From the IMG/VR virus record IMGVR_UViG_2698536369_000018: 5,179 bases of DNA. One strand, written 5' to 3'. Position 1 is the stretch's first letter; the number at the start of each line of letters is the position of its first letter. A model generated the notes under the pieces. The model saw only the letters and a program-made list of their open reading frames with translations. It was not told the origin of the DNA and searched no databases. Positions 1-5,179 of the stretch are shown one piece after another. This stretch comes from a virus. Its lineage: Duplodnaviria; Heunggongvirae; Uroviricota; Caudoviricetes. The position numbers and the translations under genes were made by a program.

Positions 1-281
1 GGGTTATCGCTCGCCACGGGAATATCTACGGCAGCAAGCCAGTAATGGGTTAAGTGATAACAGGTGTCTGGAAATATAGGGGCAAATCCAATCTCCTCGA
101 AATGGTCATCAATTATGTGACCACTATTCAGACAAGCTTCTTTGGCGCGCGTTAATACAGGTATAAAGTGACGATACTCAGAATAACCCAGTAGTTTCCC
201 AAGTTGTCTTGCTGACCATTGTTCTGCTCCGTTTGCATTAATCAGCTTTATCTCTTCAAAAGGTTGATGATGTTCGTTCAT
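1..281 (-). CDS. dinD: DNA damage-inducible protein D (DinD-like), 5' portion only; 93 codons in window, CDS runs off the window start
   Basis: Minus-strand ATG at 279-281 preceded by GGAG 6 nt upstream. Translation MNEHHQPFEEIKLINANGAEQWSARQLGKLLGYSEYRHFIPVLTRAKEACLNSGHIIDDHFEEI... matches the DinD N-terminus as I recall it (from memory, no search). Frame stays open to position 1. A second in-frame ATG lies 12 nt further upstream (291-293). Confidence 0.7.
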   Translation of the reverse strand, partial: MNEHHQPFEEIKLINANGAEQWSARQLGKLLGYSEYRHFIPVLTRAKEACLNSGHIIDDHFEEIGFAPIFPDTCYHLTHYWLAAVDIPVASDN

Positions 282-344: not shown

Positions 345-578
345 GTGAGTATCTCACGTTCTCAGTGTGCTGGGCAAAAAGACATCGCAAAATCTGGAGC
401 AGGCACGCAAAACAGAATTGAATGTTGCGGGGAAGAAAAATGCCGCTCTGTTTGAGTGGGCGGCATTTGTGAAGGCTGAAAAGTAAGAATTGGCGTTACG
501 AGTTATTCTTGAATCTGTTTGTAGAGTATTGGCCTCAATGCCGCATTGTAGCTGATTTTTTTCTAATGCGTTTTTTGA

Positions 579-600
579 TTATGTACACCCTTATGTACAC
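579..600 (+). promoter_or_regulatory. Two direct copies of TTATGTACAC (12-bp period), each containing the palindrome TGTACA; candidate operator
   Basis: TTATGTACACCC / TTATGTACACGT at 579-590 and 591-602, flanked by T-runs at 556-562, 571-576 and 602-608, immediately upstream of the ORF at 631. No protein can be assigned to it from sequence. Confidence 0.25.
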
Positions 601-630
601 GTTTTTTTAAAGCGTTCAGCAATTACGCTG

Positions 631-891
631 GTGGATGATCACGGATGGCCTGATATCTACAGCCGCCTTAAAAAGCTGGACCCGACAAGCATTACTGCGT
701 ATCGGGTTCGTTCGCTCTTTCTACTCGTGGCAGATGAGTTTATTGGTGTGATTTTATCGGGCGAGGGTATTGTATCAGGCATCCCCTTTTCTATGCAGAT
801 TTGCATAGTTCCGAATGGTGGCGTTATGGAAGCCTCCCATATCAGCATCATGCCCACCAGCGTGAAGTATTTTTTTATTTCGCGGGTGTAA
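631..891 (+). CDS. Hypothetical small protein (86 aa), weakly supported
   Basis: ATG-initiated ORF from the six-frame track. No convincing Shine-Dalgarno (GGTGG directly abuts the ATG) and no recognisable motifs; codon usage is plausible. It could be a chance ORF in an intergenic region. Confidence 0.25.
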   Translation: MDDHGWPDIYSRLKKLDPTSITAYRVRSLFLLVADEFIGVILSGEGIVSGIPFSMQICIVPNGGVMEASHISIMPTSVKYFFISRV

Positions 892-932
892 AAATTTGAC
901 TAGGCGGGCGGTCCCATAAGCAATGGATTGTA

Positions 933-946
933 GGGATTTCGATCCC
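933..946. other. Short perfect hairpin GGGAT-TTCG-ATCCC
   Basis: 5-bp stem with a TTCG tetraloop, followed by a C-run. It does not fold into a canonical tRNA T-arm (5-bp stem with 7-nt loop) on either strand. Confidence 0.3.
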
Positions 947-967
947 CCCTCCTGAATGCAATTTTTC

Positions 968-979
968 GTATATATATAC
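968..979. repeat. 12-bp perfect palindrome GTATATATATAC containing (TA)5
   Basis: Read directly; it lies 8 bp upstream of the 9-mer repeat block. Confidence 0.6.
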
Positions 980-987
980 AAAACAGT

Positions 988-1013
988 GCGGGTTATGCGG
1001 GTTACCGGGTTAT
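988..1013. repeat. Three tandem direct repeats of a 9-bp motif GCGGGTTAY
   Basis: GCGGGTTAT (988-996), GCGGGTTAC (997-1005) and CGGGTTAT (1006-1013), read directly. Confidence 0.8.
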
Positions 1014-1088
1014 CTTAGCGTGCTAACTATTTTTTGTTCTTTAGTATCAATATGTTGAAAAATGCACTGTTCATTATTCAAGCATCGC

Positions 1089-1151
1089 ATAACCCGCAAA
1101 ACATCCCAAATAACCCGCAAACGCCCCAAAATAACCCGCAAACACATTGCT
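1089..1151. repeat. Three tandem 21-bp repeats, each beginning ATAACCCGCAAA (iteron-like)
   Basis: ATAACCCGCAAAACATCCCAA (1089-1109), ATAACCCGCAAACGCCCCAAA (1110-1130), ATAACCCGCAAACACATTGCT (1131-1151). The period is exactly 21 bp (two helical turns). The conserved core ATAACCCGC is the reverse complement of the GCGGGTTAT repeats at 988-1013, so the two blocks form an inverted pair across a 75-bp AT-rich spacer. Confidence 0.8.
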
Positions 1152-1751
1152 GAAAGCTGGGGTGGATAGTTCCACTGGTGCCACAGAACGGCTGAATACG
1201 GTAACTGTTGCTGGTGGTCTGTCCTGTTGTCGTTCCAGTCTCATCAAATTGAGAGGCAAGACAAAGTGCATTTTTGCACTATAGCCAAAGCCTCATAAAA
1301 CAGAGTTACCCCCACAGGTTGGCAAACCATTACCCAACGCAATTAAGTGCGTCAGAATCGATTACAGCGCGTTCCTGTGGCACATTGTTGCCGTTCTCAA
1401 CAGTGAAAGGAGAGCGTAAAAAGCGCATATCTATTACTGTTGAGGGGTGTAGCGGCATATATCGCGCATATCCACGCCGTTAATCCCGATACCGTCACTG
1501 CGCATTGAGATCCACCAGAAGATTAAGATAGTTTTACCTGAAATTATCCAAATAATTGTTTTAACTGATTAATTTTTCGAATATCTATTGTTAGGGAATA
1601 AATCATCAGATACACCATAAAACGACATCTTTCAGGGTGTAGAAGATGCAAAGCCGGTACTGAAGAAAAGACAAAGAATATGAATGGCTGGCCACACGAT
1701 GGAAGGATTGTCCATTGAAGGATCAATCCCCATGGTATAAGTATTAATAAA

Positions 1752-1843: not shown

Positions 1844-2158
1844 TCACGATAGTTCCGTTTTGTTGAATTCAATTATATCAAGGTCAGAACTTTCGTAATC
1901 CTTACCGAATAAAGCAAAACATATCGCGTCAAGTTCTCTCTTATGTTTGGACGCCCGATCATAATTACCACCCCAACAGCAAATGAATCCACCAAGTACT
2001 GCTGATTCAAAAAGTAATGATGCTGCATCAATATGTCTGAACCAGGAGTCTATAAGTAAAGCAGAGAGTGATATTAATGTTCCCCACCCGCCAATCCTTC
2101 TCCATTTCTCAGCTTCATATTTAAGAGAAGCAATATATTCAATTTTATCTCTCGTCAT
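1844..2158 (-). CDS. Small putative membrane protein (104 aa), AT-rich and rare-codon-rich; last gene of the operon
   Basis: Its ATG overlaps the stop of the upstream 918-aa ORF (minus strand reads TGATG, sharing one base). Two hydrophobic segments (IGGWGTLISLSALLIDSWF and AASLLFESAVLGGFICCWGG). Codon usage is atypical for its neighbour: 4 AGA, 1 AGG and 4 ATA codons in 104. No family recognised. Confidence 0.6.
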   Translation of the reverse strand: MTRDKIEYIASLKYEAEKWRRIGGWGTLISLSALLIDSWFRHIDAASLLFESAVLGGFICCWGGNYDRASKHKRELDAICFALFGKDYESSDLDIIEFNKTELS

Positions 2159-4914
2159 CAGTTCCCCACCGCCTTTCCAAAATCCGGTGCTCTACGTGGC
2201 GCAATAGCACCCGGTTCCCACCAACTCGTTATGTCGAACTCCCGTTGCGCGCGGTCCCTTACTCGATCATTGTAACCAGGGTTTGCCATCTCCTGAAGTT
2301 GTTGCAATATCAGGTGATTGGTTATCGCTTTCGCATACCACAGGTTTGCGAATGGGGTGATCATGCGGGCTGTTTTCAGTGCATCGGCACCGAATGATGT
2401 TTCTTCACCCTGTATAGCCTTCTGTGGGTTAGTAATCAGTAATTTTGTTAACTGCTCTGCAAAGCTCAACACAGGGCCACCCATAGTGGCACCGATGCTG
2501 GAGCCATATTGCGTATGGTCCTGGAAAATAAAATCACCGTAGATACCGAACGAACCACCTTTCAGTAGAGCCTGAACCCATGTGGTTGGTTTTGTCATAT
2601 CCAGCGGGTCATTACCATTTAACAAACTGTTCATCTGGATCGCAAACATACCAGCAAGAGTTGTTCCCCCGATATATGAGGCCAGAAATTTAATGGCCGG
2701 AACGGTGTCCAAATCCCGTGTTCTGTTAACAAGTTGCCGAAATCCAGCAAATGGGGTTGTTTTGAAGAGCATGAAGCTCTTCATTAACTCGCCAGCATCA
2801 TCACGGGCATATGTATCAATACCCGTAGCGGTGGTCACAGCATTGGTCATCTCACCGTGCGTAATTCCCAGCAATTTCTGGGCTGCTTCAGCGCGTGCAT
2901 TACGAATCATGCGCATGATGGTCTGCTCAGCCTCAGCGTCGAATGCTTCTTTCATCCGTTTCTGGCGTTCTGGAGGGAGATCACCAAGGGCTGCCAGTGC
3001 CTTTTCACTCCCGGCACGAATCCGGGCAATACGGTCTGCCATAATGTCGGCGATTACGTTATCGGGCACAGCGTAAATCGCGTCTGGCGTCATCCCCATA
3101 TGCCCGGCTGTAGTCATCGGCCTGAGTTCTGCCGCTGCCATGATGGCCCAGTCCTCATTGCTCCATCCCTTGTTAGCCAGAATGGTTTTATCGGTTCCTT
3201 TTATATCGTCCAGCGTCTTAAATTTTCTGGTCAGCTCGCCAATGTTTTTGTACATCAGGAGACCAAACGACGCTTTGTTTGCGCGGTCCATAGCGATCAG
3301 CCCGGACCACTTCAGTGTCTTCTCTGCGAACCAGCCAGTTATGCCGCGAGACAAGTCAAACCCACCCATTTTCGAAACCACAGCAGCATGTGAATCCACC
3401 AGCAGACCGAGTTCAGCATTCGCCTTTTTGGCATCTCCACTAAACAGGTTTTTGATAGTGTTAACGGAAAGCCGCATTCCACCACGGGTAAAGCCCAGCG
3501 CCTGCGCATTTGCCCGCATAATGGCCTGGTCGCTGGTTGCTGTCAGTACGCTGGTGCCAAGCATGGCGCTGGTCATCAGGTTACGCAGACCACCAACTGC
3601 TGAAGAGAACACACTCGATGAAGCGACACCATTTAGGCCAGCCATTGAGTTGAACATACGGGCAACTAATTTGGCCTCATCCTCCATTTCTTTTTTGCGT
3701 TTCCCGCCTGTTACTGCGCGCTTATAGATGCGATCCAGTACCAGGGAAAAGTTTCTTTCGGCGTCCGGACCAAAGGCTTTAACGACGCCCAAATCCCTGG
3801 ATGATGATTGCAGGTGCGACATCATCACCCCCACCAGCGGCTGCTGAGTGTATCGCTCCATATAGGCGAAGTGTGACTGCGCATCCTTGAACGCCATCAC
3901 CCTGTGCTGAGAACCACGGCTCTTTATTCCTCCGGCTCCCATAAATGTACCAGGCTCAATTTTGTTTGCCCCATCAGTGGCCTTCGTTTCAAAGATCGCT
4001 TCCAGTGCCTGACGGTACTCAACGTCATTCATAATGCTGCCATCAGGATTAACGTAATTGCTGCGATCCTGCGTGTTGTAAACGTCATCAACCCATGCCT
4101 GGCGGGCAAACTCAATCGGTGGCTGGCGACCTGAAAGACGTGCTGTAGCTTGTTCTGTCACTGGTAACGATGCCAGCCATTCTTCGCGCCCGGCATTGCG
4201 AATAAGGTCAGCATCATCCACATATGGCATATTCCAGTCGTCTCGCTGGCCTATGTCAAAGCCGTTGTCGTTCATCTCATGGCGAACACGGCTTGTTACA
4301 TCCTTCCAAATCTGTGCAATTTTCTTCGCCAGTGGATTCCCGGTATCTTCGCCGTAAATCTCTTTAAGGATCTGGAGTTGTGCAGACTTTGCCGCCTGCC
4401 TGTCGAATACACTCCGAAACCGCTGCTCTCCAAGCGCCCTGCTCTGCTCGAAGAATTTGCGGACGTCATCACCTGCTTTTAGAAGTTCAGCACTGAGCTG
4501 ACGGGACCAGTCCTGATATGCCCCAATTGCAAGCTCTTCAGCAGAAGTAACGGAGATATCAGCTTTGTCTCTCGATCGTCGGCCAGCAAAAATAAACTGC
4601 TGCAAATTAACAGGTGTCTGCTGATCAGGCGGGATGTTAGCATCGAGAGTGTCAATAATTTTACTGATGGCGATCGCATTGTGGGCAACACGCTGTCTTT
4701 TCTTGTACACATCATGAACCACACGCTGGCGTACCAGTTCTGCTGCATCCATGTATGTTTGAGCATCAGGAATACCACTTTTTCCTTCTTTTGCATTCTT
4801 TCTGTGCACATGCTGCACAGCTTCTTTGATACGATCTTCAATATTTTTCAGCTCATCAGCCTTTGGCTGGCGACCAAGTGTCTGCGCAATAGCTTCAACA
4901 CATGCCTGTTTCAT
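2158..4914 (-). CDS. Large hypothetical protein (918 aa from the ATG at 4914; the track's 925-aa version starts at a GTG at 4935); function unknown
   Basis: Longest ORF in the window with codon usage typical of enterobacterial genes. The ATG at 4912-4914 is preceded by GAGGAA 6 nt upstream and overlaps the TAA of the upstream 53-aa ORF (TAATG). I see no Walker A/B, HNH, DDE or other catalytic signature by eye. It has a K/E/R-rich helical N-terminal third and a central Gly/Ala/Ser/Thr/Met-rich stretch (NSMAGLNGVASSSVFSSAVGGLRNLMTSAMLGTSVLTATSDQAIMRANAQALGF...). Confidence 0.85.
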   Translation of the reverse strand: MKQACVEAIAQTLGRQPKADELKNIEDRIKEAVQHVHRKNAKEGKSGIPDAQTYMDAAELVRQRVVHDVYKKRQRVAHNAIAISKIIDTLDANIPPDQQTPVNLQQFIFAGRRSRDKADISVTSAEELAIGAYQDWSRQLSAELLKAGDDVRKFFEQSRALGEQRFRSVFDRQAAKSAQLQILKEIYGEDTGNPLAKKIAQIWKDVTSRVRHEMNDNGFDIGQRDDWNMPYVDDADLIRNAGREEWLASLPVTEQATARLSGRQPPIEFARQAWVDDVYNTQDRSNYVNPDGSIMNDVEYRQALEAIFETKATDGANKIEPGTFMGAGGIKSRGSQHRVMAFKDAQSHFAYMERYTQQPLVGVMMSHLQSSSRDLGVVKAFGPDAERNFSLVLDRIYKRAVTGGKRKKEMEDEAKLVARMFNSMAGLNGVASSSVFSSAVGGLRNLMTSAMLGTSVLTATSDQAIMRANAQALGFTRGGMRLSVNTIKNLFSGDAKKANAELGLLVDSHAAVVSKMGGFDLSRGITGWFAEKTLKWSGLIAMDRANKASFGLLMYKNIGELTRKFKTLDDIKGTDKTILANKGWSNEDWAIMAAAELRPMTTAGHMGMTPDAIYAVPDNVIADIMADRIARIRAGSEKALAALGDLPPERQKRMKEAFDAEAEQTIMRMIRNARAEAAQKLLGITHGEMTNAVTTATGIDTYARDDAGELMKSFMLFKTTPFAGFRQLVNRTRDLDTVPAIKFLASYIGGTTLAGMFAIQMNSLLNGNDPLDMTKPTTWVQALLKGGSFGIYGDFIFQDHTQYGSSIGATMGGPVLSFAEQLTKLLITNPQKAIQGEETSFGADALKTARMITPFANLWYAKAITNHLILQQLQEMANPGYNDRVRDRAQREFDITSWWEPGAIAPRRAPDFGKAVGN

Positions 4915-5075
4915 TATGGGTTCCTCAAGAAGCACGCTGCCGCTACAGAATAAACCTTCGATTCGTTCTGGACTGTCTTAATCTGTTCATCCAACTCAGC
5001 CAGGAGATCAGAAAGTTTTGTCGGGTTTCCGGTTTCCGGGTGAGCTATAGTCAGCTCAGGATTGGCAACAGCCAT
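4914..5075 (-). CDS. Small hypothetical protein (53 aa) translationally coupled to the large ORF
   Basis: ATG at 5073-5075 with a G-rich stretch (GGGGCGG) about 8 nt upstream; translation MAVANPELTIAHPETGNPTKLSDLLAELDEQIKTVQNESKVYSVAAACFLRNP. Its TAA (4914-4916) overlaps the ATG of the 918-aa ORF. It is below the size cutoff of the supplied ORF track, so this is my own reading. Confidence 0.45.
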   Translation of the reverse strand: MAVANPELTIAHPETGNPTKLSDLLAELDEQIKTVQNESKVYSVAAACFLRNP

Positions 5076-5119
5076 GTTGAACCGCCCCGGGTTTCCTGGA
5101 GAGTGTTTTATCTGTGAAC

Positions 5120-5179
5120 TCAGGCTGCCAGATCATCGTTGCCGATGGAAGCATAATAAGCTTTTTCTGCTTCTGCCGG
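5120..5179 (-). CDS. 3' end of an upstream minus-strand gene (last 19 codons plus stop); partial
   Basis: This frame is open from the window edge and reads ...PAEAEKAYYASIGNDDLAA then TGA at 5120-5122, with typical high-usage codons. A second frame is also open from the edge and ends at 5056-5058 but uses rarer codons (CGG, AGG, CTT), so frame assignment is uncertain. Confidence 0.3.
   Translation of the reverse strand, partial: PAEAEKAYYASIGNDDLAA

Follow-up and report, generated by a model that had tools for sequence, protein, structure and literature searches.

The 5,179-nt stretch of viral DNA analyzed here (the window; IMG/VR record IMGVR_UViG_2698536369_000018, Caudoviricetes) carries at positions 1844–5179 an open reading frame (ORF) of 918 aa between ORFs of 53 and 104 aa, which an initial annotation, made from the letters alone, described as a compact operon of no assignable function upstream of an SOS gene. 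This interval is probably the distal end of an ejection cassette of the type found in podophage epsilon15, carried as the post-primase module of a ~20-kb satellite of the phage-inducible chromosomal island (PICI) type that is integrated at the 3′ end of yicC. In this reading, the window holds the degraded remains of an island that corresponds to EcCIMP1 but is of the epsilon15 type; EcCIMP1 is the PICI of E. coli MP1 that podophage vB_EcoP_Kapi1 mobilizes (Pick, Stadel & Raivio, ISME J 2025, PMC11773190). A satellite is preferred because the same architecture was found at two integration sites with different integrases, and the cassette is placed inside this element because clusters of short repeats (iterons) flank it, the second of them near the attachment site attR.

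The 918-aa protein was identified solely with the PHROGs profiles and by tblastn against phage genomes. In the PHROGs search, phrog_684 ("virion structural protein") matched residues 1–916 of 918 (E 1.2e-295), and among 50,697 phage records the best tblastn match was gp17 of Salmonella phage epsilon15, 88.9% identical over 917 of the 918 residues, followed by a long run of epsilon15-like podophages at 26–29% identity. Pfam, NCBIfam and PADLOC searches of the three window proteins gave no match. Membership of the epsilon15 gp17 family is firm, the gene being assigned by sequence similarity as the gp17 orthologue, and its product is a predicted virion internal (ejection) protein of the epsilon15 type; presence of the family in virions rests on the RefSeq label "virion structural protein", the literature and epsilon15 virion proteomics. 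The view that the large protein was motif-less and belonged to no known family was thus superseded. The initial annotation had also held that its candidate system would fall to full-length homology with a phage structural family, provided that the flanking genes were ordinary neighbors conserved in all related genomes; the homology was found, but the flanking block is variably present.

Internal virion proteins (IVPs) are packed in the podophage head, ejected, and form a DNA channel across the envelope (review, PMC8954989). Using chained hidden Markov model comparisons, Hardies et al. (2016, PMC4819975) placed epsilon15 gp17 in the T7 gp16/IVP-D group, with E 8e-19 for the link to T7 gp16 reached only once intermediate groups had been joined, and treated epsilon15 gp15 and gp16 as IVP-C-like and gp13 and gp14 as IVP-A/B. 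The profile and structure searches that had been proposed for the large protein gave the full-length PHROGs family described above, while sequence searches of the PDB, run with the single 918-aa protein and with a 19-sequence profile, were empty. An AlphaFold2 model was all-alpha with a pLDDT of 62, and Foldseek with this model ranked the T7 core gp16 chain third (E 0.55). With hhalign, for which the gp17-family profiles were shallow (Neff 2.7), E values were 0.16 against T7 gp16 and 0.23 against a 14-member alignment of the T7 gp16 C terminus, and the comparison with T7 gp15 was not significant. The place of gp17 in the T7 gp16 superfamily therefore rests on the literature.

The likeness to T7 gp14-gp15-gp16 (IVP-B, -C and -D) extends to general features: these are large alpha-helical proteins whose genes lie past those of the tail tube and which, after packaging into the head, are ejected across the envelope, and one core protein has lytic transglycosylase activity, which is predicted in gp15 of the present cassette. 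Likewise, gp17 is the last large gene of the internal-protein block, its product is helical, and a hydrophobic segment toward the C terminus is present, with one hydrophobic window in the hydropathy profile (residues 741–761). Unlike T7 gp16, gp17 lacks a transglycosylase domain and is 400 residues shorter.

The cassette is old and has been maintained without decay, under purifying selection. For gp17, dN/dS (the ratio of nonsynonymous to synonymous substitution rates) was 0.045 in comparison with epsilon15 and 0.11–0.29 among the island copies, and the gene is uninterrupted in 14/14 island copies that were read. Since dS relative to epsilon15 is saturated (about 1.4), the cassette is no recent copy of epsilon15 itself.

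A megablast search of 5,426 complete E. coli genomes found copies of the block in 54, at one place per genome. Seventeen of these copies have ~80% nucleotide identity, and the one inspected (EC25, L010) belongs to a complete prophage of the epsilon15 type that sits between guaA and yfgI and has terminase, portal, capsid, gp11–gp14, tailspike and lysis genes. The remaining 37 are at least 98% identical, and every inspected copy lies in a ~20-kb element. This element is found at yicC/dinD in L001, L003 and L009, inserted within the last codons of yicC, and at tRNA-Gly, with a different integrase, in L005. Strains ExPEC XM (NZ_CP025328) and AHB6 (NZ_OZ546940) are examples with an intact copy. A protein identical to the 918-aa product is recorded in 170 assembly blocks, many of them contigs of 2–10 kb; the long contigs carry the intact island in all cases. 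Empty yicC-dinD sites exist and are the rule, so that an ordinary housekeeping neighbor of dinD was ruled out and the comparison of gene neighborhoods, proposed earlier to learn whether the block is variable, showed that it is.

Genes in the intact island are ordered int, a 216-aa protein, AlpA, Rha/Ant, BRO, Icd-like, DUF4222, DUF927 primase, SSB, ProQ/FinO, PerC and a 68-aa protein, followed by the cassette of gp15 (843 aa, with a lytic transglycosylase region, phrog_1044/873/7182), gp16 (686 aa), gp17 and a small gene, and then by a non-coding stretch of ~1.3 kb. At the nucleotide level, the island is homologous to five epsilon15-like phages or prophages from the gp15 ATG to the gp17 stop, at 73–79% identity; the middle of gp16 has been replaced in the island copies. 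When the island backbone was compared with four Uetakevirus genomes, no homologues were found except an integrase of 27% identity, a short match resembling AlpA and a BRO-N domain, which rules out that the island arose by deletion from a Uetakevirus prophage. The annotation of the island, and Pfam and PHROG scans of part of its proteins, showed no capsid, portal, terminase, tail or lysis families.

Measured against the features that define PICIs, int, alpA and pri-rep lie in this order in L001/L003, L005 and L009 (AlpA by Pfam, the primase by phrog_1139), all in genes outside the window, and the element has its own attachment sites (an imperfect direct repeat at the yicC 3′ end; tRNA-Gly). A repeat origin lies 3′ of the replication gene in three islands, and repeats immediately 3′ of this gene are the classical position of a PICI origin (PMC6092414). 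The island departs from the rule of ~15 kb and no structural genes, being ~20 kb long with three ejection genes. Some Uetakevirus prophages are called PICIs by SatelliteFinder (PMC10121019).

Three further observations concern the slot behind ssb/ProQ/PerC. The PerC-family gene directly ahead of the cassette carries a frameshift in the annotation of 3/3 inspected islands (L001 21854–22079, L005 29316–29541 and L009 27784–28009); it is a conserved pseudogene, or else a gene that is recoded or wrongly annotated. An element of the same backbone type (L105 10257–12787) carries major capsid, decoration and small terminase (terS) genes in this slot, and a related backbone (L103 8859–11228) carries an autotransporter there. 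Separately, in Pectobacterium zantedeschiae (L027 4969–13062), gp15-gp16-gp17 and a 97-aa gene with two predicted transmembrane (TM) helices occur without gp11–gp14 or a tailspike, next to a QueC-like gene, regulators and an excisionase-like gene; this locus may be a further non-phage carrier of the cassette.

Among known systems, epsilon15 itself shares with the island the gene order gp15-gp16-gp17-gp18, the stop/start overlaps, a terminator right behind the small last gene, and gp15 and gp16 proteins that are, in the intact island, 74–89% identical over their conserved parts. The island differs in having no gp11–gp14, capsid, portal, terminase, tailspike or lysis genes, and in a 104-aa last gene that is unrelated in sequence to gp18.

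The closest relative in organization is EcCIMP1. This island excises only upon induction of the P22-related phage Kapi1, which transduces it, and adds to superinfection immunity against Kapi1 by a mechanism unknown to its authors; they noted that three post-primase genes resemble "DNA transfer proteins" and Kapi1 proteins and discussed them as possible packaging factors (PMC11773190). In the present analysis, the EcCIMP1 locus (L106 14481–19649) was found to encode a full P22-type ejection set, gp14-, gp7-, gp20- and gp16-like by PHROG (phrog_651; phrog_598, "DNA ejection"; phrog_917/2534, "released from the phage upon host infection"; phrog_770, "DNA transfer protein"), with a transglycosylase N terminus in the phrog_770 protein. 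EcCIMP1 has int, AlpA, Ant, DUF4222, Icd, a DUF927 primase followed by iterons, and PerC, without capsid or lysis genes; its primase and Ant are 62% and 60% identical to those of the present island, and its ejection genes lie directly behind the primase, so that a verified PICI breaks the rule against structural genes in the same way. In contrast, its block is P22-type and not homologous to the epsilon15-type gp15–17, it integrates at tRNA-Thr/proA rather than yicC, and its induction and transfer have been demonstrated, whereas those of the present island are predicted. On its gene content, the island is best described as an EcCIMP1-like PICI in which the post-primase module is of the epsilon15 type instead of the P22 type. 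The literature searched contained nothing explicit on satellites or PICIs with ejection, injection or internal virion proteins, and no description was found of a PICI with an epsilon15-type ejection cassette and bipartite iterons.

Satellite P4 has a bipartite origin, consisting of ori plus crr. The island resembles P4 in its integrase, AlpA/Vis-type regulator, primase-helicase and two separated clusters of one short repeat, but its iteron clusters are about 11 kb apart. The P4 genes psu, delta and sid did not turn up in the annotation or in Pfam and PHROG scans of part of the island proteins, no direct search for them having been made. E. coli PICIs and P4 are regarded as separate lineages (Fillol-Salom et al. 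2018, PMC6092414).

Within the window, the cassette has been damaged by an insertion sequence (IS) of the IS3 family. The 53-aa ORF, which had been taken for a separate gene of the operon, is 81% identical to residues 582–634 of epsilon15 gp16, its C-terminal end (E 5e-30), and aligns with positions 540–594 of the 594 positions of phrog_1145; full gp16 homologues have 634–686 aa. Its start is an internal Met of gp16, 2 nt from the end of the IS. All E. coli homology to the window ends at 5077, and an IS terminal repeat, TGAACCGCCCCGGG, read from the sequence, starts on the + strand at 5078. The remaining DNA (5078–5179) is 93–95% identical to the ends of IS3-family/IS1203 elements in >4,000 genomes and has the terminal inverted repeat (IR) beginning TGA and the 3′ end of orfB that are expected of this family. 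An ORF at 5179–5120 (minus strand) that runs off the window, previously counted as the upstream gene of the operon, is the 3′ end of the IS3-family transposase. By these alignments, the 53-aa ORF is a gp16 pseudogene fragment left by the insertion and not a gene of its own. No assembly with the IS junctions of the window was found.

Because gp16 is interrupted, the cassette in this genome can probably no longer serve in virions. Both gp17 and the 104-aa gene remain intact. Promoter scans of the window and of L009 found no promoter-like site ahead of either gene, so their transcription would be limited to read-through from the IS or to an unrecognized internal promoter. The part of the initial annotation that described the genes as tightly coupled and bounded by a terminator was borne out: gp16 and gp17, and gp17 and the 104-aa gene, overlap by 1 nt (TAATG at 4916–4912 and TGATG at 2160–2156, read from the sequence), and 8 nt past the last stop lies a GC-rich 10-bp stem (ACAAGGCCGC/GCGGCCUUGU) with the loop UUUC, followed by five T residues. 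This hairpin folds at -21.4 kcal/mol (z = -3.55; 0/200 shuffles fold as well). A consensus terminator scanner missed the site in the window and detected the identical sequence in L009. Just past it, a second GC-rich hairpin with a T-run (CCGCGCAGCGGGCTTTTTT) lies on the + strand at 1745–1790, and the two may be a back-to-back terminator pair. Rfam and tRNA scans of the window gave no match.

The 104-aa protein had no match to Pfam, PHROG, NCBIfam or PADLOC families and no tblastn match among the phage records. Its homologues form 13 clusters only, all in Enterobacteriaceae; in Salmonella and E. coli they lie right behind gp17 in complete epsilon15-like prophages, with the same 1-nt overlap. 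No similarity was found to epsilon15 gp18 or to the post-gp17 gene of a Klebsiella prophage. In a dozen relatives, the ORF at the gp17 stop almost always has 57–113 aa and two hydrophobic helices, and the sequences are unrelated between lineages (epsilon15 gp18; versions of 113, 97, 91, 65, 64, 61 and 57 aa). The earlier designation as a membrane protein holds insofar as the 104-aa protein has two hydrophobic segments (residues 22–40 and 43–64), but these are only moderately hydrophobic (Kyte-Doolittle maxima 1.25 and 1.64), and the protein is the least hydrophobic of the small post-gp17 proteins compared. By position, it is a putative analogue of gp18, with a predicted two-helix membrane hairpin. 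In 9 of the 37 near-identical island copies, an unrelated 113-aa gene with two TM segments replaces it (L009 19663–20004), while the terminator and all DNA downstream are common to both kinds of copy; the slot after gp17 is therefore exchanged as a cassette.

Table 1. Features of the 5,179-nt window
Feature	Position	Strand	Remarks
Right end of IS2, inserted in dinD	1–90	+	100% identity over 95 nt
dinD 5′ fragment	91–281	minus	~63 codons, 191 nt; truncated by IS2
attR core of the island	503–520	not assigned	imperfect copy of the last yicC codons
Iteron cluster	987–1140	not assigned	5 exact TAACCCGCA copies
Intrinsic terminator closing the cassette	1810–1837	minus	hairpin + T5
104-aa ORF, small protein in the gp18 slot	1844–2158	minus	start overlaps the gp17 stop by 1 nt
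918-aa ORF	2158–4914 (ATG 4914–4912, stop 2160–2158)	minus	epsilon15 gp17 homologue, intact
53-aa ORF	5075–4914	minus	within the gp16 3′ stump, 4914–5077
Right end of IS3-family element (IS1203/IS629 group)	5078–5179	minus	IR + last 19 orfB codons

The other end of the window marks the border of the island with the chromosome (Table 1). Its first 90 nt match IS2/IS3-family transposase ends in thousands of E. coli records, the junction of IS2 with dinD is at 90/91, and the dinD start is at 281. Positions 91–505 are 98–100% identical to dinD and the yicC-dinD spacer of empty-site genomes, and this homology stops at 505, the yicC stop. Thus dinD, the SOS gene mentioned in the initial annotation, is present, but only as a 5′ fragment cut by IS2 and ~1.5 kb away from the cassette, with attR and the iterons in between. 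The attR core, TTAYTCRATRTTCTGRATCTG, recurs at the int-yicC junction in L009, giving an imperfect repeat of ~21 nt at the two island ends. Relative to attR of strain ExPEC XM, the window copy has a 6-nt deletion, which might impair excision of this copy of the island. A RefSeq hypothetical protein of 235–251 aa spans the chromosomal spacer, attR and the island (window 469–1173, + strand; L001 12379–13083; L009 17933–18688) and has no Pfam, PHROG or PADLOC family; the ORF varies from 117 to 251 aa between copies, is broken in the window (an 86-aa ORF at 631–891), and is probably not a real gene.

The iteron, a 9-mer, is arranged in the window as two groups in opposite orientation with an AT-rich spacer between them: TGCGGGTTA, in 2–3 tandem copies (987–1013, inverted), and ATAACCCGCAAA, in 3 copies at 21-nt spacing (1090–1140). 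With ≤1 mismatch allowed, 6 matches were counted where 1.06 would be expected, and 0/200 shuffles reached 6. The same 9-mer occurs six times right 3′ of the DUF927 primase gene, before ssb, in L009 (29434–29558), L001 and L005. By analogy with P4, this suggests that the window cluster is a second, crr-like copy of the origin repeats of the island.

If the island is such a satellite, a Uetakevirus-like helper in its lytic cycle would induce it through AlpA, and it would excise, replicate from the iteron origin and express the cassette. gp15 (with its lytic transglycosylase region), gp16 and gp17 would be loaded into capsids built by the helper and, in the next infection, would be ejected to form a DNA conduit through the envelope. 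The inner membrane may be the site of action of the small membrane protein, which would act together with the ejected proteins or counter the entering phage DNA. Several points weigh against the satellite reading. The helper makes ejection proteins itself, leaving the need of a satellite for its own set unexplained; none of the 5,426 complete E. coli genomes has both the island and a gp17 prophage detectable by megablast; the autotransporter in the related backbone shows that the slot takes plain cargo, so that the cassette could be cargo with another role; and the window itself is probably a short-read contig with IS repeats at both ends. A wider proposal is advanced tentatively, as one that may well not hold: that there is an E. 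coli PICI lineage with exchangeable ejection modules matched to the helper, P22-type in EcCIMP1, epsilon15-type here and possibly of a third kind in Pectobacterium (L027), and that the yicC/dinD island is a satellite of Uetakevirus-type phages that re-equips helper capsids with DNA-delivery machinery of its own or uses these proteins and the variable small membrane protein to control superinfection.

Of the other explanations, an antiphage or superinfection-immunity device is compatible with a satellite but unlikely. Here the ejection proteins, the small membrane protein or both would hinder DNA entry or assembly of epsilon15-like phages, either because they poison helper particles or because they block the arriving ejection complex at the inner membrane, and would not serve transfer of the satellite itself. 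In favor of this reading, the presence of the element varies between genomes, a related backbone has non-morphogenetic cargo behind the primase, and the small membrane protein after gp17 changes between lineages as exclusion and moron genes do; the superinfection phenotype of EcCIMP1 makes the idea worth testing. However, gp15, gp16, gp17, the 104-aa protein, its 113-aa alternative and two other island proteins have no match in PADLOC-DB 2.0, the virion proteins have kept their full length under strong purifying selection, and no promoter-like site lies ahead of the small gene. In complete prophages, too, that gene overlaps a late structural gene at its stop, an arrangement suggesting that it is expressed with the late operon and not from the lysogen. 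A toxin-immunity or abortive-infection pair, with a large effector and a small membrane immunity protein, agrees with the size pattern (large, then small and hydrophobic) and the tight coupling, and with nothing else; the large protein is a full-length virion protein homologue, no toxin, nuclease, NTPase or defense domain was found in Pfam, NCBIfam or PADLOC, and in complete prophages the pair is part of the late structural operon, making this the most improbable of the explanations. The proposal of a toxin-immunity module, or of an undescribed system, was accordingly abandoned in favor of a known phage family, and on present evidence the block is no defense candidate.

The third guess of the initial annotation, a prophage remnant, came closest, in that the block is the remnant of a mobile element, but the carrier is a PICI-type satellite. 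Taken literally, as a functionless piece of a decayed epsilon15-like prophage beside an unrelated island, this explanation is quite improbable. The window block does lie between IS elements with gp16 destroyed, and decaying epsilon15-like prophages with frameshifted gp15–17 exist: in Klebsiella pneumoniae (L006 2800–10000), gp15, gp16 and gp17 are split by frameshifts into several ORFs, and a 103-aa homologue of the small gene is intact. Against this, the arrangement from int to the small gene repeats at two att sites with different integrases, the phage homology begins and ends exactly at gene boundaries, and the block is internal to the island, enclosed by its two iteron clusters and attR. 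Moreover, gp13, gp14, tailspike and lysis genes, the neighbors to be expected in a prophage, are absent without scars, and all island copies are intact and under purifying selection.

The supposed orphan operon beside an SOS gene thus consists of ordinary phage-derived genes broken by IS elements and is not worth pursuing as a new defense or toxin system; its genes are ordinary members of a known phage family, and the island that carries them is a new form of a known type of element, only mildly unusual. Satellites are known to appropriate capsids, tails and packaging specificity; if the satellite reading is true, ejection proteins of their own would extend this list to DNA delivery, a mode of helper exploitation that is not spelled out in the literature searched. 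Such ejection sets could help to explain the superinfection immunity conferred by EcCIMP1. The variable gene with two TM segments behind gp17 is a small candidate factor at the inner membrane during DNA entry, and the island, if correctly interpreted, would provide a natural system for asking which podophage ejection proteins are interchangeable.

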